A stretch of 64,000 nucleotides of DNA, taken from a virus. Lineage: Duplodnaviria > Caudoviricetes. Position 1 is the stretch's first letter. Every line of letters starts with the position of its first letter. The notes under the pieces were generated by a model. It was not told the origin of the DNA. It searched no databases and worked only from the letters and a program-made list of their open reading frames with translations. Shown here piece by piece: positions 7,294-51,620 of the stretch. The translations under genes and the position numbers were made by a program. The stretch lies in IMG/VR virus record IMGVR_UViG_3300010163_000024, positions 3 to 64,002 of that record, one strand, 5' to 3'.

Positions 7294-8007
7294 TTATTGT
7301 TTTAATTTCCAACAAAATCCACCTGCCATTTTAGACCGCCCTTTAATACAATTCGTAATTGATGTTATAAGCAACCTATTTTCTTTCGCAGCGGTTGTTA
7401 TGTTAATATATTCTTCAATCGGATTTCCCTCTTTATCACATTTTATTACAGATTTACCATTTTTGTATTGGACATCGGTGTCATGGATGTACCTCCATAT
7501 AAATCTTTTATAGGTATTATGTTTTGGTTTTCGCAAACAACACCAATTAATACATGATTGAGCATATCCCAATTCTCTTGCAGCAAGAGTGGCCGATTCC
7601 CACTCTCTTATTTTATTACCTTGCAAATTATATTGTGCAATTTTCTTGCTATGAGATTTTGCCGCTTTTTCGGTATGGCTACCATATCGGTTATTGTATG
7701 CCCTATCGCACCATTCAAGATTATCCGCGTGGTTGTTTTGCGGATTTTCGTCCTTGTGATTAACACAATCGTATTTATCAGGATTAGGGTTCTCAACGAA
7801 TAGTTGTGCAACTAATCTATGAACTCTAAATCCTTTAATATGCCTATCCTTTTGGATATTTATCGTGGGATAACCATATTTGTTTAGGAATATCGCTTTG
7901 GGTTTCTTGCTCTTAAAGAATCTTACATTTCCCAAATTCGATACCTCTAACTGACATCCATGAAGTTGTATTGGTTTCCAAACCTCGGTGGAAATAATCT
8001 TCTGCAT
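7294..8007 (-). CDS. NUMOD4/HNH homing endonuclease with NUMOD1 repeats
   Basis: VSNLGNVR, VHRLVAQLF, VNHKDENPQNNHADNLEWC; two C-terminal Q/C-Y/D-xxG-W/Y repeats; own TATCTTTG promoter at 8030-8037. Confidence 0.9.
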   Translation of the reverse strand: MQKIISTEVWKPIQLHGCQLEVSNLGNVRFFKSKKPKAIFLNKYGYPTINIQKDRHIKGFRVHRLVAQLFVENPNPDKYDCVNHKDENPQNNHADNLEWCDRAYNNRYGSHTEKAAKSHSKKIAQYNLQGNKIREWESATLAARELGYAQSCINWCCLRKPKHNTYKRFIWRYIHDTDVQYKNGKSVIKCDKEGNPIEEYINITTAAKENRLLITSITNCIKGRSKMAGGFCWKLKQ

Positions 8008-9845: not shown

Positions 9846-9971
9846 AGTGATTCACTCTTAAAAGGTGATTATCATACAAGTTTACACTTTTACATATTCG
9901 CGTTTCTTTGCCCCGACCACTGTCGGCGACTCCACGCGCCCTGCCCCGATCACCGCAGGTGGTATTCCTAT
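9845..9971 (-). ncRNA. TnpB omega-RNA (reRNA) 3' scaffold plus putative guide
   Basis: Overlaps the tnpB 3' end as omega-RNAs do; two hairpins plus GCGCGT/ACGCG pairing; near-identical copies elsewhere define the conserved core; scaffold/guide boundary uncertain. Confidence 0.7.
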
Positions 9972-11075
9972 AAGGTTCTGATGTTGCAAACCGAACCTCT
10001 TAATGTTTTGAGCAGCAAGCAAGTCACGGTCATGCGTCGTCCCACACTTCGGACAAGTCCACGACCTATCCGATAACGTCAGGGCGTCATTCTTGTAGCC
10101 GCAAGTACAAAGTTTGCTGCTCGGCTCGAATCTACCTATGCGGATAAGGTTCTTACCTTGCCACTCGCACTTGTACTCCAACTGACGAAAGAACTCCGAC
10201 CAACTCGCTGACGATATATGCTTTGCAAGGCAATGATTTTTCAGCATACCGTCTACATTCAAGTCCTCAATAATAATCGTTTGGTTCTCGCGAACTATCC
10301 TCGATGTTACTTGATGCAGAAAGTTGGTACGCTTGTTTCTCACTACCTCGTATTGCTTTGCTACTGCTCTACGTGCTCGCTCACGACGATTGCTGCCTTT
10401 TTGCTTCCTTGCAAACCTACGCTGCAATACAGCCAAACGTTTTTCCTCTTTCTCTAAATACTTCGGATTAGCGAAAGTCTGACCGTTTGACAGCACGGCA
10501 AAATCCTTAATTCCTACGTCTATGCCGACCGCCGTGTCCTCCGTGATAGGGGCTTTTGCAGGTAATTCCTTGCCGTCGTCTACCAGCACCGAAGCGTAAT
10601 ACTTTCCTGTCGCTGACTTGCTGATTGTTACCGTGCCTATCTTACCATCAAACGTCCGGTTCTTGTAGAACTTTACCTCTCCTATCTTTGGCAGTTTGAT
10701 TCGGTTTGTCTCAAAGTCAATACTTACCTTTTGCACAAACTGAAACGATGCACGTGAACGGTGCTTTGACTTGAACTTCGGGAAGCCTTTCTTTTCACGA
10801 AAGAAACGAACGAAGGCAGCCTCCATGTGCCGGATTGAACTCTGCAAAGACTGATTTGAAACCTCTTTTAGCCAAATCGTATCTTCCTGCTTTTTAAGCT
10901 CTGTAAGTTCCTTGCAGAGTTCTACCCAACTAATTCTTGTCTTATCTTTCTGATAGGCTTCGATGCGTCTATTCAACGCCCAGTTATAGACGAACCGTGC
11001 GCAACCAAAGGACTTCTCAAAGAACTCCGCCTGTGCCTTGTTAGGGTTCAATCTATATCTGTATGCCTTTATCAT
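9882..11075 (-). CDS. tnpB: RNA-guided endonuclease TnpB (IS200/IS605 family)
   Basis: N-terminal KAYRYRLNP HTH; RuvC-I VGIDVG, RuvC-II IIIEDL, zinc finger CTCG..CPKC, RuvC-III HDRDLLAAQNI; all three acidic residues intact; no tnpA nearby. Confidence 0.95.
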   Translation of the reverse strand: MIKAYRYRLNPNKAQAEFFEKSFGCARFVYNWALNRRIEAYQKDKTRISWVELCKELTELKKQEDTIWLKEVSNQSLQSSIRHMEAAFVRFFREKKGFPKFKSKHRSRASFQFVQKVSIDFETNRIKLPKIGEVKFYKNRTFDGKIGTVTISKSATGKYYASVLVDDGKELPAKAPITEDTAVGIDVGIKDFAVLSNGQTFANPKYLEKEEKRLAVLQRRFARKQKGSNRRERARRAVAKQYEVVRNKRTNFLHQVTSRIVRENQTIIIEDLNVDGMLKNHCLAKHISSASWSEFFRQLEYKCEWQGKNLIRIGRFEPSSKLCTCGYKNDALTLSDRSWTCPKCGTTHDRDLLAAQNIKRFGLQHQNLIGIPPAVIGAGRVESPTVVGAKKREYVKV

Positions 11076-11079
11076 ACTA

Positions 11080-11110
11080 CAAAGATAAGTAATAAAAACT
11101 AAATATGCAA
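11080..11110 (-). promoter_or_regulatory. Promoter of tnpB (probably leaderless mRNA)
   Basis: TTGC-N19-TATCTTTG ending 4 nt before the ATG. Confidence 0.65.
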
Positions 11111-11158
11111 GGATTTAGTTTGGTTCGGCGAACTTGTATATAATTACCATTGCCTTTT

Positions 11159-23282: not shown

Positions 23283-24374
23283 TTACTTCTCTTTAACCTC
23301 TACAAATTCACCGTCCACCAACTTGTACCACGTGTCCGCCTTTATCTTCTTGCCGTCAACGACAGCGGCTTTCCATTCTCTAATGTCATAATCTAAATCA
23401 TTTTCTTCTGCAATAACCAGTACAGCACCAATGCCACCTCTAACCATAACATTGTTTCCACGTGCAACTGAAAGGCCATTGTCTCCTGTTGAAGATTTAC
23501 CGCGAGCGGTGGCGGCACCCGAATCTCCGGCGGTGGCGGCACCATAGTTTCCGGCGGTGGCGGCACCCTTATAGCCGGCGGTGGCGGCACCCGAATCTCC
23601 GGCGGTGGCGGCACCCTTATAGCCGGCGGTGGCGGGTTTACCTGCTTCCGCATTATTTTCGTTAGTGCATCGGCTTCTCACAAACTCGAAGTGCGCTTTA
23701 CAGATGCCAGCGATATCTAACCTCGCGCCGATTTTAATCTTATTCGTTACACTTTTGCTGCCATCCGAATATGTATCACCAATCGCTTCTACCTCGTGCA
23801 TGACCGTTTCTTTTCCGTCATTTATCGGCCCGTAATAACCACGTGTTTCAAGCGGACTTTCGCAGAAGTGAAACCCTTGTTCGCATAGTTCCGGTTTACC
23901 GTTCATCTCAAATGTTTCACCCTCTTTATATTGGAATCCGCGACACGTCATGTCATTATTAAACACCTTATAGCCTTTTGTGATGCAGAACTCTTTAGGC
24001 AATATGACGTTTTGAGGGGCTAACATTGTTTTGAACATATCGCCCATTTCTATTATAGAAAATCCGGCTATTCCGCAACCTATTTTCGTTACATAAAATG
24101 TCTTGTCGGGATTGTTTTTCGCGAACTCGTACAATTCCATTACCGACGAGGCGATTTTGTTTATATCGACTTTTTCCATATTCTCGTCGAGCGTCGGAAT
24201 AGCATACGATTGACCTTGCAAACCCTCTGCTTGACCCATGACCGCGCCGAACTTTTCGACTGCGAGACGAGCAGCACCGCCAGCATGATTACCGGATTTG
24301 TTTGACCCGAAAACGAACACTTCGTTTTCTTTCAGTTCCGAGACATTCTCGGGTGTGAACTTTCTGTTTTCCAT
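23283..24374 (-). CDS. Fusion: macro-like (A1S_2505-type) domain + DUF7666-like domain + 8-aa repeats
   Basis: EVFVFGSN..G.H.GGAA..A...FGA..GQAEGLQGQSYAIPT, YVTKIGCGIAG; then GYKVF...CRGFQY...CEQGFHFCE; AGxxGAAT repeats. Confidence 0.7.
   Translation of the reverse strand: MENRKFTPENVSELKENEVFVFGSNKSGNHAGGAARLAVEKFGAVMGQAEGLQGQSYAIPTLDENMEKVDINKIASSVMELYEFAKNNPDKTFYVTKIGCGIAGFSIIEMGDMFKTMLAPQNVILPKEFCITKGYKVFNNDMTCRGFQYKEGETFEMNGKPELCEQGFHFCESPLETRGYYGPINDGKETVMHEVEAIGDTYSDGSKSVTNKIKIGARLDIAGICKAHFEFVRSRCTNENNAEAGKPATAGYKGAATAGDSGAATAGYKGAATAGNYGAATAGDSGAATARGKSSTGDNGLSVARGNNVMVRGGIGAVLVIAEENDLDYDIREWKAAVVDGKKIKADTWYKLVDGEFVEVKEK
23506..23635. repeat. Coding tandem repeat, 24-bp unit, about 5.5 copies
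   Basis: GCGGTGGCGGCACC core at 23506, 23530, 23554, 23578, 23602 and partially at 23626. Confidence 0.9.
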
Positions 24375-28989: not shown

Positions 28990-29346
28990 CTATCTAATCG
29001 GCGCGAATTGCAAGCGTTTGTAAAAATCATTCCAATCAATCGCCCACACCGTCAGCACGTCCGCGCCCGGCGCGTTCACATCGTAGTGCGACAGTGTGCC
29101 GTATCGCTCGTGCAAGTCCTTGACCGTCGCGATTATGTAACCGCGCCCCGCCATCCATTCGCGCGCGATTTCGCGCATTTGACGATTGTGTTTGTTTGTT
29201 ATGCAATAATCCTTTAATGCCGCGGCGCGTGCCGTCATTCGCTTTGCGACGTTAATCCAATTCGTTAAAGTTAGATTGTCTACTCGTTTGCTTTTCATCT
29301 TTTCAGTTGTTTTTTTTATTTGACACCGGGCGGCATTGCCGCCCAC
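28990..29346 (-). CDS. Hypothetical phage protein
   Basis: Early-region ORF; the real start is probably internal (MKSKRV). Confidence 0.5.
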   Translation of the reverse strand: MGGNAARCQIKKTTEKMKSKRVDNLTLTNWINVAKRMTARAAALKDYCITNKHNRQMREIAREWMAGRGYIIATVKDLHERYGTLSHYDVNAPGADVLTVWAIDWNDFYKRLQFAPIR

Positions 29347-29387
29347 GCGCTCGGCCTAAGTCCTATTTTAAGCCGCCAAGCCGGCTA

Positions 29388-42470: not shown

Positions 42471-42486
42471 CTTGATACGACAAAGT

Positions 42487-45231
42487 ATGTTACGACTGAA
42501 AGATACAAGTATAAGTAAGCCGGTACCCTATCCGAGGGTGGAGAGAAAAGACCCTACCGTCATCGACAAAGGTTGGGATAGGGTCGGAGGATTTACGCTT
42601 CGGGATAAGGTGGACTTTATGCCGCAGAAAGGATTGCAGGAAAGATTGTGCGCGTGTGATAGTAACCTCGTGTTCCTTTGTGGAGCGGCTACAATGGGTA
42701 AGGCGCAGCCATACGACACAAAGGTTCTTACACCTAACGGATTTGTAGATATGGGGTCGCTACAAGTCGGCGACACTATATCGGGATCAGACGGAGGTAG
42801 GCAGACCGTATTAGGTATTTTCGAGCAAGGAGAAAAGGACGTTTACGGAATTAATTTCGAGGATGGAAGTTATACAGAGTGTTGCAAAGAACATCTTTGG
42901 AAAATATCTTCGAGAACATTAAGTTGTCATCAAACTTATGGCGATTACCACATCGAAAAGTTTGAGGATATTATGCGGCTTCTCGACACGAATTACGCTG
43001 TATGTATTCCTTATTGTGGAAAAATACAGTTCAAGGAACAAGAACTTCCTGTAAAGCCATATACGCTCGGAGTTATATTAGGTGATGGTCATTTCCCAAA
43101 ACGAGGTAATCCGCAAATTTCTTGTATTGATACTGAAATTATTGATAGAATAAAGAAAGATGGGTATTCCGTAAGTAAGATACCAAGCCACACTATAGAC
43201 TATATTATATCGGGTCATAACATAAATCAAAAAATCAAAGAACTCGGATTGTGGGATAAACGCTCTTGGAGTAAGTTTATTCCCAACATATATAAAATGT
43301 CAAGTGTGGATGACAGAATGGAGTTGATACGAGGTCTTATGGACACCGATGGTTGTATAGATACGAATAGCAGATTGTATTATGCAACAGCAAGCAAACA
43401 ACTTGCAAAAGATTTTCAATGGATTGTACGCTCTTTGGGTGGTAGGTGTTCTATAACGGAAGCACATCCAAAATATAAATGGAAAGGAGAAGTTAGGCAA
43501 GGGCGAACATCATACTGCTTATGGCCGTCTTTCAAGGATGATAATAATGCAGTAACAATTACAAGAAAGAAAGAACGAACAAGGGAACATACATATAGTC
43601 GTCGTAAGTCCATCGTATCTTATAAGTATGTAGGCAAAAAGCAATGCCGATGCATTCTTGTATCGAATCCCGACCACTTGTATATTACTGACGACTTCAT
43701 CGTTACTCATAACACCTACGGAATGTTCTTAAAGTCGTTAGAGGGCATAGATAAGCAAGGCTATACGGCTCGTATGATTTCCGTCCGCTTACAGGATAGC
43801 AAGAAAGGTTCATCTATATTCCGTGATGCGGTCGAGGTTTGTGGTAATTTTGCAGGGTGTGAGTACAATTCATCGGACTACCCTACATTCTCGTGGAAAA
43901 AGTGGAATAGCAACTTGCAGTTGATTCACTTAAACTTTAATGTAAATAATCAGCAAGAATGGGAGGATTTTCAAGAGTATTGTAAAAAGCAGCAAAGTTC
44001 AAAAATACTCGTGGATGAGGCTACGGATGCAGAGGAAAAGGCTTTGATGTATCTTTTTTCTCGTAACCGCGATAGTTCGGGTATGACACCACAATCTATA
44101 TGGTCATTCAACCCAAAACACGAACATTTCACTACCCGCGTTCTAAAAGATGCTGGATATTTGGGCGAAGATTGGTTTTTCAAACCTGAAATGAATGGTG
44201 CTACACGGTATTTCTATATGTTAGGAGATACTTTTGCAGATGCTATTTGGGGGGACACGCCCGAAGAAGTGGCAGAGAGAGCGAATATCCAAATTAGTGA
44301 TGGTGATAAGGCGGCAGGCGTAACGTTCTACCATATTGTAAAATCATTCACGGCTTTCACAGGAGAAGCATCAGATAACCGTAAACTTATTGCCGCGACG
44401 AAAGGTCAAGTTATCGGAAACCTGCACGCCGTAGGTAAAACCCAGCGAAGTGTTCTTAAAGGTGCTTATTTCGGTCCTATTGACAACGAGGAACTGACCG
44501 TATCGCGGCAGATGATACACGCCTTATGGGAGAACCCTATCAATGGCGATGAGAATATGTACGCCACTATGGACGTGTCGGGAGGTGGCGAGGAGAGCGA
44601 CAACTGTCCTATGGTTATATGGAAAGGGTTGCAGATTATCGCTATAAAGATGTTCAGCGGAGACCCTAAACAGTTGGTCGATTGGATTGACACTACCTTA
44701 CGAGAGTATGGTGTCCCGACAGAACACTTTGCATTTGACGCAACCGGCATTGGCTACTATCTCCGGAGTTATTCGTCCGGTGTTCCTATTACGGCAAATA
44801 AGAGAGTTTTGCAGGAATACGACGAGTACGGGAACCCAGTAACACTTACTGATTACTACAACCTGCGTTCGCAGTTGCTCGGCAAGACGAAAGTATTGTT
44901 GGAGAAAGGTGAGATTTCGTGCGCGGTGGATAAGGATATTGTGTTACCATACGGTAAGAAAGGCAAGACACGGCGGTTGATAGACATTCTGTTCGACGAG
45001 ATGAATGTGTTTATTACGACTACAAGGAACAGAAAGGTTTACTACCGACACAAGGATGAATATAGAAGCAAATTTAAGGCTTCGCCTGACCTTATGGACG
45101 CCATATCGTATAGGGCTATTTTCGAGCTAGATGCGCGAGAAAAGAAAGCGCCGCCTAAGGAGATATCCGATGATGCTTACGACGGCTTGTATCAGCACTA
45201 CGGCAGAGGACAGAGTGTTGTTTGGGTGTAG
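42487..45231 (+). CDS. terL: Terminase large subunit, intein-containing
   Basis: After intein removal Walker A reads GAATMGKT; Walker B ILVDEATD; nuclease MDVSGGG...FAFDATGIG...PDLMDAI. Confidence 0.9.
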   Translation: MLRLKDTSISKPVPYPRVERKDPTVIDKGWDRVGGFTLRDKVDFMPQKGLQERLCACDSNLVFLCGAATMGKAQPYDTKVLTPNGFVDMGSLQVGDTISGSDGGRQTVLGIFEQGEKDVYGINFEDGSYTECCKEHLWKISSRTLSCHQTYGDYHIEKFEDIMRLLDTNYAVCIPYCGKIQFKEQELPVKPYTLGVILGDGHFPKRGNPQISCIDTEIIDRIKKDGYSVSKIPSHTIDYIISGHNINQKIKELGLWDKRSWSKFIPNIYKMSSVDDRMELIRGLMDTDGCIDTNSRLYYATASKQLAKDFQWIVRSLGGRCSITEAHPKYKWKGEVRQGRTSYCLWPSFKDDNNAVTITRKKERTREHTYSRRKSIVSYKYVGKKQCRCILVSNPDHLYITDDFIVTHNTYGMFLKSLEGIDKQGYTARMISVRLQDSKKGSSIFRDAVEVCGNFAGCEYNSSDYPTFSWKKWNSNLQLIHLNFNVNNQQEWEDFQEYCKKQQSSKILVDEATDAEEKALMYLFSRNRDSSGMTPQSIWSFNPKHEHFTTRVLKDAGYLGEDWFFKPEMNGATRYFYMLGDTFADAIWGDTPEEVAERANIQISDGDKAAGVTFYHIVKSFTAFTGEASDNRKLIAATKGQVIGNLHAVGKTQRSVLKGAYFGPIDNEELTVSRQMIHALWENPINGDENMYATMDVSGGGEESDNCPMVIWKGLQIIAIKMFSGDPKQLVDWIDTTLREYGVPTEHFAFDATGIGYYLRSYSSGVPITANKRVLQEYDEYGNPVTLTDYYNLRSQLLGKTKVLLEKGEISCAVDKDIVLPYGKKGKTRRLIDILFDEMNVFITTTRNRKVYYRHKDEYRSKFKASPDLMDAISYRAIFELDAREKKAPPKEISDDAYDGLYQHYGRGQSVVWV
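42703..43713 (+). mobile_element. Intein (337 aa, class 3 signature) with LAGLIDADG homing endonuclease
   Basis: Starts AQPYDTKVLTPNG, ends IVTHN followed by Thr; block B EHLW, block F CRCILV, LGVILGDG and IRGLMDTDG motifs. Confidence 0.92.
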
Positions 45232-45685: not shown

Positions 45686-45797
45686 AAAACTTTTTCGTAA
45701 CATACCTTTTTTTGAGTTTTTGAGCCAACGGTATTTCTGCCGTTGGCTCTTTTGCTTTTTTGGGGTGTGGGACGGATAAAAATATAAATATGACAAT

Positions 45798-45890
45798 CAC
45801 CTGCGGTGAGCGGGGCAGAGCGCGCGGAGTTGCCGACAGTAGTTGGGGCTAAGAAACGCGAATATGTGTAACTTATTAAATCATAATCAC
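45798..45890 (+). ncRNA. Orphan copy of TnpB omega-RNA scaffold (copy A)
   Basis: CACCTGCGGTGAGCGGGGCAGAGCGCGCGGAGTTGCCGACAGTAGTTGGGGCTAAGAAACGCGAATATG aligns with the reverse complement of 9.89-9.96 kb. Confidence 0.8.
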
Positions 45891-46574
45891 ATGAAAAACA
45901 AAATTAAGGCGGCATTGCAACAGAAGTATCCGCAACTGGGGCTTGCTGATGAAGTTTTTGAGGGGGTCGCTTCCGCCGTTGAAACCCTTATCCCGGATGA
46001 GGCAGCCATTCCCGCTTTCGTAGAGGGCGCGGAGGGTATGCTGAAACGGTATCAGAGTATCGCTGACAAGACGCGTGGAGAGTTAGCAGAGGCGAAGCGG
46101 GAGTTGGAAGCGTTGAAAGCAAAGCAAGTTGAAAAGCCTGCCGAGCCAAAAGATGCACCAAAATCCCAAGAAGAACCGAAGCCTGCGGAAACGTCCGACC
46201 TTTCCAAACTAATCAGTGAGGCCGTAAGTGCAGCGGTGAAGCCCTTGCAAGACGAACTTGCGTCTTTCAAAGGAGAGCAGGCACAAAAGGCCGCCGTGAA
46301 AACGGCAAAGGAAAAGTTCTTCGCAAACGACTACGCAAAGAAGTACGAAACCGAGCGCGACGATGCGTGGGAACGTGCTATCGAGAAGTTCGAGGACACG
46401 GGCAGTAAAATGAACGTAGACGAACTTCACAACACGGCTATGGGATACTTTAATAAGTATGTTTCTCGAAAGGGCGTAGACACCAAAGTACCGTTCAAGA
46501 GCGAGGGGAACAGCGATACTGAAAACTTTTCCGCATTCGACAGAGTGGTGGCAAAGGAGAACGAAAAAAAGTAG
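45891..46574 (+). CDS. Capsid scaffolding protein
   Basis: Charged coiled-coil protein just upstream of the head genes; probable start 45891. Confidence 0.7.
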   Translation: MKNKIKAALQQKYPQLGLADEVFEGVASAVETLIPDEAAIPAFVEGAEGMLKRYQSIADKTRGELAEAKRELEALKAKQVEKPAEPKDAPKSQEEPKPAETSDLSKLISEAVSAAVKPLQDELASFKGEQAQKAAVKTAKEKFFANDYAKKYETERDDAWERAIEKFEDTGSKMNVDELHNTAMGYFNKYVSRKGVDTKVPFKSEGNSDTENFSAFDRVVAKENEKK

Positions 46575-48312: not shown

Positions 48313-48336
48313 GGAAACAAATGAACATTGAGTAGT

Positions 48337-48879
48337 ATGACCGTAGAAGCGTATTTGAAAAGTTTAGTCCCGGGCCTTGATTTGCCGAAAGAGGTATATC
48401 AGAGGGCAGCGCGTAGTCCGAAGGAAGTAGGGCTTGACGCTGTTAAGTTGGATGATGATATTGACGCTTTCGATGCTATCGAGGACAAGGACGAGAGAAA
48501 TAAGGCGGAGGCCGAGTTTCAAGTTCGACTTGATTATGCGTCTTCTACGGTCTATTACGCTGTTTTGGGTGTGTTCGCTGGAGGCGGGTTCACGGAACAG
48601 TACGGAGACACGCAGATGCGCAAAGGTGGTTACACTATCACTATGGCAGATAGGGAGCGTTTTAAGATGCTCGCTGACGCCTTGCGTAAAAAGCATGGAT
48701 TCGATACGGAGGACGAGGACTTGGAATCCGGCGGTATGTTCGACGGTGGGTATTTGCGTTCATTAAATAGGAATACCACCTGCGGTGAGCGGGGTAGGGC
48801 GCGTGGAGTTGCCGACAGTGGTCGGGACAAAGAAACGCGAATATATGAAAGTGTAAACTTGTATGATAATCACCTTTAG
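48337..48879 (+). CDS. Head-tail connector/adaptor; last ~37 codons encoded by an omega-RNA copy
   Basis: MTVEAYL..., GG.TEQ.GD....KGG motif; position after the capsid gene. Confidence 0.65.
   Translation: MTVEAYLKSLVPGLDLPKEVYQRAARSPKEVGLDAVKLDDDIDAFDAIEDKDERNKAEAEFQVRLDYASSTVYYAVLGVFAGGGFTEQYGDTQMRKGGYTITMADRERFKMLADALRKKHGFDTEDEDLESGGMFDGGYLRSLNRNTTCGERGRARGVADSGRDKETRIYESVNLYDNHL
48767..48877 (+). ncRNA. Orphan copy of TnpB omega-RNA scaffold (copy B)
   Basis: 105/111 nt identical by manual alignment to the reverse complement of 9861-9971. Confidence 0.9.
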
Positions 48880-49192
48880 GGATAAATGCGTAATTGAGCG
48901 TCCGACGGATAGGTACGACGAATGGGATAACCAAATCGTCGAAACTATCTACGAGGGTGAGTGCCACTACGAGGAGGGCGGACAAAGCAACGTGAATCGT
49001 ATGGTAATACGCAATCCCCTATTGTTCCTGCCGAGCAACAAGGTACTTGTAAATATCAACGATTCTGTAAGTATAGAGACGCTTGCAGGTCGCAAGATTA
49101 CGAGTGTCGTAGAGGCGGTTCGGGACATCCGCTTTATCTTCATTGAACGCGAGACTACCCGCATAGAGTTGAAGCAGGCGAGTGAAAAGTAA
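48863..49192 (+). CDS. Head-closure protein
   Basis: Position and pattern (DEWDN...IYEGECHY...GRKITSVV). Confidence 0.6.
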   Translation: MIITFRDKCVIERPTDRYDEWDNQIVETIYEGECHYEEGGQSNVNRMVIRNPLLFLPSNKVLVNINDSVSIETLAGRKITSVVEAVRDIRFIFIERETTRIELKQASEK

Positions 49193-50901: not shown

Positions 50902-50938
50902 ATAGGCGATAGCCGTCGGCTTGCGGCTCTCTTTTAAT
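50902..50938 (+). terminator. Terminator-like stem after the tail tube gene (stem spans about 50886-50932)
   Basis: GAGAGTCGTAG ... TTGCGGCTCTC followed by TTTT. Confidence 0.45.
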
Positions 50939-50942
50939 TATC

Positions 50943-51006
50943 ATCCGCAGTTGGCGGGGCAGAGCGCGTGGAGGGGAGAGGTTACGAACCCGATGAAGCG
51001 CGAATA
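50943..51006 (+). ncRNA. Diverged orphan omega-RNA-like copy (copy C)
   Basis: TCCGCAGTTGGCGGGGCAGAGCGCGTGGAG...GATGAAGCGCGAATA keeps both hairpins and the CGCG pairing. Confidence 0.6.
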
Positions 51007-51041
51007 AAGAGTAATTGTTTAACATTACAATTTAACAACGC

Positions 51042-51620
51042 GTGGCAACCACCGAGGAACAGATACAGATGCTTGCAAATGAGCGAGCCGCACGAACTGG
51101 CGCACCTTGTGCGGTAGTAGTAGGAAATAAAGTATATAATGTTAAGGACGTACCTAACATTATCAAACGAAAGATTTACGACCTCGAATTGGAGGCGTTG
51201 ATATTAGAACGCGAGGCAAAGGAGGAGATAAAACTGCGTCGCGCACAGGAAATAGCGAAAAAATTACGGACGCTACATTCAAAGACTGCGGCGTACTATA
51301 TACTGGGATTGAAAGCGTTGTTTGTGCCGTTCCTGTTCGCTATCTATTGGCGGATATTGGACTGCCGTACAAGTGTGCATACGTACGAAATCAATAAAGC
51401 GGGAATGCAGGGGAAAAGTGTAAATTTTTTCTACGCCAACTGGCAGATTACAAAGGCTCAACTCGCGCTCTCTACGAAGTTGGTTGGCGACGGCATCAAG
51501 CAATATCAAGAGAGAATGGAGAGTGCGGAAAGTATGTTGGCCGAGGACGCTTTGCCGAAAAAGGAGGCGGACGACAAGTCGGCAACTTCTTTGAAAGCGC
51601 GGCGGACAACGAAAAGATAA
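51042..51620 (+). CDS. Tail assembly chaperone (G-like)
   Basis: Between tail tube and tape measure genes; contains a slippery site. Confidence 0.7.
   Translation: MATTEEQIQMLANERAARTGAPCAVVVGNKVYNVKDVPNIIKRKIYDLELEALILEREAKEEIKLRRAQEIAKKLRTLHSKTAAYYILGLKALFVPFLFAIYWRILDCRTSVHTYEINKAGMQGKSVNFFYANWQITKAQLALSTKLVGDGIKQYQERMESAESMLAEDALPKKEADDKSATSLKARRTTKR

Follow-up and report, generated by a model that had tools for sequence, protein, structure and literature searches.

Can the end of a transposon be written into two structural genes of a phage at the same time and still serve as an RNA? The junction between two neck genes near 48.8 kb of the virus record IMGVR_UViG_3300010163_000024 raises this question. 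The record, from IMG/VR, is ~64 kb long and is that of a Bacteroidales-type phage; the whole stretch of 64,000 nucleotides (nt) that was analysed is called the window below. It holds one tnpB gene of the IS605 family, whose omega-RNA scaffold and right end we call copy T, and three omega-RNA scaffold copies without tnpB (A, B and C), all on the + strand and all within the late operon. Copy B lies across the neck-gene junction. We consider it very probable that copy B duplicates, without a protein gene, the last ~110 nt of the phage's own IS605-family tnpB element, from the scaffold through the right end. For the locus as a whole, we lean toward the reading that this protein-less element has been overprinted by the two neck genes and probably still serves TnpB in trans.

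Sequence, right end and fold of copy B

Alignment of 48767-48877 with the reverse complement of 9861-9971 gave 105 matches in 111 positions, as the original prediction had reported, and a repeat search recovered the pair as inverted arms of 111 nt with 95% complementarity. BLAST of the copy-B region against the record returned the tnpB-side copy at E 3.8e-46, which excludes a chance match. A covariance model (R1) built from 26 scaffolds matched copy B over the full model length (48752-48874, 102 bits, E 9e-23). Left of ~48764 the DNA is coding sequence of the upstream, adaptor-like gene common to relatives, up to ...TCATTAAA (...TCA TTA AA), and the left junction of copy B is ambiguous within 48764-48767. 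Copy B thus has two of the attributes of an omega-RNA, homology to a tnpB 3' end plus right end and termination at a transposon boundary with variable sequence beyond it, as at ~60 tnpB loci. Encoding in cis is absent: no TnpB open reading frame (ORF) lies at 48.8 kb, the sole tnpB of the record being ~39 kb away on the other strand.

The position of the right end was read from 80 loci encoding TnpB relatives (62-76% identity) on other viral contigs, whose 3' ends were aligned with the three window copies. Conservation at these loci runs through ...GTGTAAA-(stem)-ATAT-ATAATCACC, after which the flanks are unrelated. In the 60 distinct elements compared, ATAATCACC or a near variant (ATAATTACC, GAAATCACG, ATAAGCGCC and others) forms the terminus, and ...ACTTGTATGATAATCACC of the window is near-identical to ...ACTTGTATATAATCACC of two unrelated loci. 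The base that follows the right end is T in 44 and C in 16 of the 60, and the flank starts with TTT in five. The first base past the right end was thus always a pyrimidine in the ~60 tnpB loci (L074-L152); either the element extends one base beyond its end as drawn, or position 1 of the guide is subject to a preference.

The 26 scaffolds were folded by RNAalifold into four nested helices with compensatory change in 12 of the 26 pairs. A fifth helix, added to these, is a pseudoknot that joins the stem-1 loop (GGUGA) to the last five bases of the right end (UCACC). It pairs in 98.5% of cells of the same alignment, with GC changed to AU six times and to CG three times at two positions. When the pseudoknot was included, compensatory changes were found at 14 of 31 pairs, and 95% of cells paired in the whole structure, compared to 86% in column shuffles and 32-43% when the partners were slid by 1-3 columns. 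The pseudoknot between the right end and the stem-1 loop covaries. The same rule was read by eye in another clade (GGCGU/ACGCC or GGCGC/GCGCC), and the pseudoknot position of copy C shows, also by eye, a four-base pairing, GUUG/CAAC. Placing the right end at the pseudoknot fixes the start of the guide for all four copies in the phage.

Copy B keeps all stems, with one non-standard pair. Seven aligned positions differ between T and B and none of these differences breaks a pair: two are unpaired, two make up one C-G to U-A double change, one mends a C-U mismatch of T, and two swap G-U and A-U. When seven random substitutions with the same transition/transversion mix were simulated, as few broken pairs were seen in 1.1% of trials (p = 0.011). 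Copies A and B share three or four states unlike T, a hint of closer kinship between A and B than of either with T; because one such position lies in the native flank of B, we do not rely on it. The coordinates of the four copies and of the genes around them are collected in Table 1.

Table 1. Features of the tnpB element, its tnpB-less copies and the neck genes (window coordinates)
Feature	Coordinates	Strand	Remarks
Copy B, tnpB-less omega-RNA scaffold and transposon right end	48764..48874	+	95% identity to 9861-9971; ends ...ATGATAATCACC
Predicted guide segment of copy B (TTTAGGGATAAATGCGTAAT)	48875..48894	+	directly 3' of the right end, where ~60 tnpB loci diverge; guide function inferred
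Adaptor-like neck gene, helical	48337..48879	+	conserved body ends ...GYLRSL (48765)
37-residue C-terminal tail, NRNTTCGERG...YDNHL	48766..48876	+	residues 147-183 of the 183-residue ORF; element-encoded
Head-closure/stopper-like gene	48863..49192	+	codons 1-4 (MIIT) and the sole usable start codon within the right end of the element
Copy A, tnpB-less	45785..45890	+	R1 86 bits (match 45770-45891); 85% identity to B, direct repeat at 45785-45871
Copy C, tnpB-less, diverged	50920..51040	+	R1 43 bits, E 4e-8 to 4e-10
tnpB	9882..11075	-	397 residues; Pfam OrfB_IS605, Cas12f1-like_TNB, HTH_OrfB_IS605; only TnpB in the record
Copy T, omega-RNA scaffold and right end joined to tnpB	9864..9989	-	R1 114 bits; overlaps the last 36 codons of tnpB
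Left end of the tnpB element	11076..11147	-	begins GTAATTATATAC at 11147; from 18 related tnpB loci aligned upstream and a flank survey

Two neck genes across the insert

Reading of the ORFs confirmed the overlaps of copy B with the end of the upstream ORF and with the ATG at 48863, at the coordinates first proposed. The longest upstream ORF (48328..48879, +) opens with TTG at 48328 and reads ...GYLRSLNRNTTCGERGRARGVADSGRDKETRIYESVNLYDNHL; its end is ...GYLRSLNRNTTCGERG...YDNHL. The true start is most likely the ATG at 48337 (MTVEAY..., as in all relatives), which gives an ORF of 183 residues. The claim that the last ~37 codons and the stop lie inside the element held for the 37 codons. The stop did not follow: TAG (48877-48879) straddles the boundary between element and flank, being the last T of TTT plus the AG of the next codon.

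The prediction also entailed that relatives lack the tail, and they do. Database searches returned 695 homologues of 131-205 residues, none covering more than ~85% of the query. No homologue among these ~695 carries the tail, and the same C-terminus in a protein without tnpB nearby was not seen. The 20 homologue ends that were aligned consist of GYLR or a variant followed by 1-14 residues (1-8 in all but two), and the closest homologues end GYLRSLKG, GYLRSIKG or GYLRGQRG. By these comparisons the 37-residue tail is unique to the window protein. The element was also absent within 4 kb on either side of the upstream-gene relatives at all 68 IMG/VR loci. The tail is read in a frame other than that of the vestigial tnpB; by tblastn, the match to the tnpB 3' end of a relative falls in another frame. 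The AlphaFold model of the upstream protein has a predicted local distance difference test score (pLDDT) of 78-88 over residues 1-80 and falls below 40 over residues 130-183, a span that takes in the entire tail, and the tail is accordingly predicted to be disordered.

The downstream gene presents the converse situation. Its protein starts MIITFRDKC, as opposed to ME-FRDKCVIER in the closest homologues (98-82% identity, among them 98%, 90% and 84%) and M-x-F-I-x-FRD in distant ones, and MIIT-FRDKC was found only in the window. The frame opens past a TAA at 48854-48856 that is homologous to the tnpB stop codon, and between this TAA and the conserved FRD there is a single start codon, the ATG at 48863 inside the element. 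The element therefore supplies the head-closure ATG, as had been predicted; the closest relatives start ME-FRDKC, and the window offers no other in-frame start. Together, the tail and the donated start codon mean that both genes rely on the insert for their present ends. The proposal that a virion gene has been extended into, and now depends on, the RNA element is thus borne out at the level of ORFs, and for both neck genes.

The gene names in the prediction had rested on position, and they fared differently. The downstream protein has no Pfam or PHROG match, and its AlphaFold model (pLDDT 85) retrieved by Foldseek SPP1 gp16 (7z4w, 2kca), the T1 stopper and the connector chains of phiXa, Douge and SaPI1, with probabilities of 0.91-1.0 and template-modelling scores of ~0.35-0.55; the E-values are weak (3e-3 to 5e-2) and the list is consistent. 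The model has the small beta-barrel fold of the gp16 type and the gene follows the adaptor-like gene, and we regard the name head-closure or stopper as reasonable for what is a predicted structure. For the upstream protein no match was found in Pfam or PHROG, or by Foldseek with the model. VIA-align placed a phiCD508 neck chain first (Z 6.3), followed by further neck and adaptor chains (Z 4.5-6.0); for helical models such scores are within noise. The label adaptor is a positional guess to which the fold lends weak support.

The protein termini of the closest relatives (GYLRSLKG* and ME-FRDKC) bear on how copy B came to lie here. Relative to these, the element stands in place of two final codons plus the stop in the upstream gene and of two initial codons in the downstream one, and the native junction appears to lack ~11 nt or more. 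The uninterrupted junction of relatives is expected to read ...TCATTAAARGGN-stop/ATGGAR-TTTAGGGAT. Copy B is not an element with both ends of the kind of palindrome-associated transposable elements (PATEs) or miniature inverted-repeat transposable elements: the left-end motif G[TC][AG]A[TC]TATATAC, which occurs in full elements and in L096-type mini-elements, is absent at copy B, and no left-end remnant was seen upstream of A, B or C. Two routes can be drawn. A full element may have inserted just before TTTAGGG, with the in-frame ATG of its right end keeping the head-closure gene translatable, and a later deletion would have taken away the left end and most of tnpB, along with a few bases of flank. 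Alternatively, a mini-element may have reached the site by recombination. Both full insertion with deletion and mini-element spread fit the data.

Possible use of copy B in trans and the alternatives

Any use of copy B in trans would need TnpB, of which the record encodes one. ISDra2 TnpB structures match this protein at E 4e-83. The sole alignment shown is with an AI-designed, ISDra2-length RNA-guided nuclease; in it, identical residues stand opposite the aspartate of GIDVG, the glutamate of IEDLN and the aspartate of HDRD, which we take to be the catalytic D-E-D residues, as in ISDra2. With its OrfB_IS605/RuvC and TNB zinc-finger domains and the D-E-D residues, TnpB has the sequence attributes of an RNA-guided nuclease. 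No tnpA or Y1 transposase gene was found in the record. CAATG precedes the left end in the window and is a candidate target-adjacent motif; the flanks 5' of left ends show a loose ...[A/T][A/T]AG tendency, with ...AG in ~17 of 27 insertions. About 2 kb from tnpB, at 7294-8007 (-), a 237-residue ORF has by eye HNH/NUMOD-like homing-endonuclease features and would be a further selfish element.

The other two tnpB-less copies are placed much like B. A strong terminator (45722-45749) precedes copy A, whose end, ...ATAATCAC, abuts the scaffold-protein ATG at 45891. Copy C, which keeps stem 1 through changed bases, follows a terminator-like hairpin (50911-50928) and stops 1 nt before a GTG-initiated ORF at 51042. 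For each of A, B and C the distance from its end to the start codon of the following gene is 0-12 nt, and A and C are preceded by terminator-like hairpins. Just upstream of copy A (region 45722-45893, +), TTTG-N22-TAAATATG resembles a promoter of the Bacteroidota type; with what we take to be the consensus of such promoters, transcription would start at about the first scaffold base of copy A.

Copies without tnpB are not confined to this phage. The model was run against 50 other phage records that carry this TnpB family, and the protein against 20 of them; one to four scaffold matches without an adjacent tnpB were present in at least 17 of the 50. In one clade the tnpB-less copies consist of a left end, a short linker and the scaffold and are true protein-less mini-elements; in G019 and G047, as in the window, no left end is visible on them. 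Seven records of a related TnpB clade (G021, G022, G024, G026, G029, G030 and G046; loci L185-L202) have 2-4 mini-elements each, with a left end, a short linker and a 150-nt scaffold. Some mini-elements share their site across several phages and differ there by compensatory changes in the stems, e.g. CCGAU...AUCGG versus CCGCU...AGCGG. Among 28 distinct sequences (27 of them tnpB-less), in an alignment fitted to the model, 91% of cells pair and double changes occur at 17 of 26 pairs. These patterns argue that RNA structure has been maintained in tnpB-less copies generally. The closest relative in IMG/VR (L073 and L005; IMGVR_UViG_3300045988_166386), with 72% identity in the adaptor-like protein and 75% in TnpB, has its tnpB in the late module, co-oriented with and upstream of zinc-ribbon and scaffold genes, and the model search found no tnpB-less copy in it. 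This different placement of tnpB in a relative without tnpB-less copies indicates that the elements have moved within the phage group.

That copy B serves TnpB in trans as a guide RNA is, in our judgment, a real possibility that falls a little short of probable. Copy B is co-oriented with the late operon and would be transcribed within the structural mRNA. Since it keeps every scaffold helix, TnpB made from the distant tnpB could bind copy B in trans and process it into an omega-RNA. The guide would be the first ~16-20 nt past the right end (starting TTTAGGGATAAATGCG...), which are also codons 5-11 of the downstream gene, and it would direct cutting of insert-less head-closure alleles, whether those of co-infecting relatives or those of revertants. 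In the phage itself the target is preceded by the right end and not by a target-adjacent motif, which would spare its own copy. The outcome would be retention of the insert, homing or exclusion of competitors. Consistent with use in trans are the three Pfam domains and aligned D/E/D residues of TnpB, the absence of tnpA, and the location of all tnpB-less copies on the + strand at gene starts.

Extended to the other copies, the proposal becomes more speculative, and we think it rather unlikely as a whole: several tnpB-less omega-RNA genes at the 5' ends of essential virion genes would serve one phage TnpB, each with the start of the following gene as its guide. Uninterrupted alleles of co-infecting relatives, or the phage's own revertants, would be cut, driving homing of the inserts with linked structural genes or excluding competitors. 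The tnpB-less copies in the other records suggest that this could be a general phage strategy and not an accident of one genome.

Several points weigh against use in trans. Seven differences between T and B give little evidence of selection on B itself, and some of the changes may have occurred on the T side, where they are under coding constraint too. The fitting of the 28-sequence alignment to the model favours pairing. The target-adjacent motif of the TnpB clade was read, tentatively, from flanks only and is too loose for a homing test. The lack of a left end means that the usual TnpA route cannot have placed B as it stands, and the apparent loss of at least 11 nt of the native junction does not correspond to a clean peel-and-paste insertion.

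Copy B may instead be inert, a leftover right end or recombination scar without RNA function that is kept since two essential genes need its stop context and start codon. We find this doubtful. It would account for the lack of a left end and of an adjacent tnpB and for the partly deleted native junction, and the 95% identity to T leaves little time for decay, so that intact stems may reflect youth alone; copy A has in fact lost most of its last hairpin and has four broken pairs. Against it, all seven differences between T and B spare pairing (p = 0.011). Copy C, which is older, kept stem 1 and the four-base pairing at the pseudoknot position, A, B and C begin within ~10 nt of the same scaffold position in the same orientation, and orthologous tnpB-less copies in other phages carry compensatory changes.

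There is little probability, in our view, that copy B is a cis-acting RNA element on the late mRNA, such as a processing site, a stability element or a start-site context, perhaps processed by TnpB and without DNA targeting. TnpB is reported to process its own transcript, and the closeness of A, B and C to start codons and the hairpins before A and C are of the kind such an element might show. Across the wider family, however, the same ends occur in many contexts and not at gene starts alone, no precedent was found in the literature searched, and such a role would not explain why the pseudoknot has been kept together with the exact right end.

The original prediction had offered a different account, namely that tnpB once sat at this junction and was relocated to 9.9 kb together with a 15-nt flank, or that the guide on the tnpB side is aimed at the head-closure site of relatives. 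Both are highly improbable. The 15 nt, ATGATAATCACCTTT, are indeed identical at the tnpB locus and at copy B; a full-length element at the junction is permitted by the deletion model, and tnpB does lie in the late module of the closest relative. As a head-closure flank the 15 nt fail, however, since 12 of them are the conserved terminus of the element: ATGATAATCACC is the invariant right end of ~60 other, unrelated tnpB insertions in phages and part of the covarying pseudoknot. The true flank common to both sites is TTT only, which is a common way for a flank to start, and by the mechanism described in PMC10055086 IS200/IS605 elements move without their flanks. At the tnpB locus, just 9 of the 20 nt past the right end agree with the head-closure site, and neither the window nor ~200 loci offered this guide a better target. 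With an invariant, pseudoknot-paired right end, an unremarkable TTT and a 9/20 match, neither reading is supported; they are already contradicted, and to revive them ...ATGATAATCACCTTTAGG would have to be native to the empty junction of relatives. The shared "flank" is a tempting misreading of the right end and its pseudoknot. Finally, we give almost no credence to an assembly artefact, in which mis-joined reads from the tnpB locus made the repeat: the record is a metagenome-derived viral contig, but the copies are 95% and not 100% identical, the gene order on both sides matches that of 68 relatives, both flanking frames are open and in register, and the window holds two further diverged copies.

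Relation to known systems and meaning for the phage

Blastn of 45.4-49.4 kb against 50,697 GenBank phage records gave no match, and an exact search of IMG/VR with a degenerate 22-mer from the scaffold core gave none either, since exact matching does not reach relatives as diverged as these. A scan of JGI metagenomes, queried with the closest head-closure homologue, returned no relative, and a scan of GTDB genomes returned only three distant loci in Bacteroidales metagenome-assembled genomes (48-51% identity). No Rfam family matched the omega-RNA. The only Rfam match in the window is a full-length Pistol ribozyme (RF02679, 57 bits versus a gathering score of 34.5) at 29321-29386 (-), away from the omega-RNA copies. 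Elsewhere in the window, a 919-residue terminase-like ORF at 42472-45231 (+) is, from its translation only, apparently split by an intein with a homing-endonuclease-like insert, and a tandem array at 23497-23635 with a 24-nt unit (GGCGGTGGCGGCACC...) probably encodes a Gly-rich repeat on one strand.

Copy B resembles the ISDra2-type omega-RNA (reRNA) of IS200/IS605 TnpB in that both derive from the tnpB 3' end plus the right end, are structured RNAs of ~110-125 nt with a pseudoknot, and have, or in copy B would have, the sequence past the right end as the guide. It differs from that type in lacking a tnpB in cis, in lying inside overlapping coding sequence and in having no Rfam model. Virus-borne mini-CRISPR arrays and solitary repeat units are used in inter-virus conflict. 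Like these, copy B would be an orphan guide-encoding unit in a viral genome that encodes the effector elsewhere; unlike them it has no repeats, spacers or acquisition machinery, and its guide would be fixed by the insertion site.

A nearer parallel comes from bacteria, where protein-less IS200/IS605 (PATE-like) elements often encode omega-RNAs that need TnpB in trans, and where TnpB is proposed to cut the empty donor site so that the transposon is restored (Meers et al. 2023, preprint, PMC10055086). PATE-like elements share with copy B the lack of a protein gene and the retained right end and scaffold; like them, copy B would need TnpB in trans. Mini-elements with both left and right ends are present in other phages with this TnpB family. 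In contrast to these, A, B and C have no left end and are not TnpA-mobilisable as they stand, and they are phage-borne, at essential-gene junctions and overprinted by coding sequence. A 2026 review (PMC13565253) frames TnpB cutting as homing and compares it with phage homing endonucleases. As in marker exclusion by the free-standing homing endonucleases of T-even phages (PMC13565253), the mechanism proposed here would cut the insert-less allele of a co-infecting relative and spread the insert with neighbouring markers; unlike theirs, recognition would be RNA-guided and multiplexed from one nuclease gene. In an incomplete literature library we found no paper on tnpB-less omega-RNA copies in phage genomes or virion genes. 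Copy B is best read as belonging to the known kind of protein-less omega-RNA described in bacteria, and as new in being phage-borne, without a left end and overprinted by two essential genes.

The locus is a natural case of one RNA module, derived from a transposon, that occupies two essential genes simultaneously: the first has gained a C-terminal tail as a dead tnpB end came to be read out of frame, and the second takes its new start codon from a transposon terminus. A simple deletion can no longer free either neck gene of the insert. Among phages that carry this TnpB clade, omega-RNA copies without a protein gene are common. If they act in trans, such phages would wield TnpB as a multi-guide weapon or homing drive, and, if several copies do serve one TnpB in this way, the system would be an RNA-guided, multiplexed counterpart of the marker exclusion brought about by homing endonucleases.

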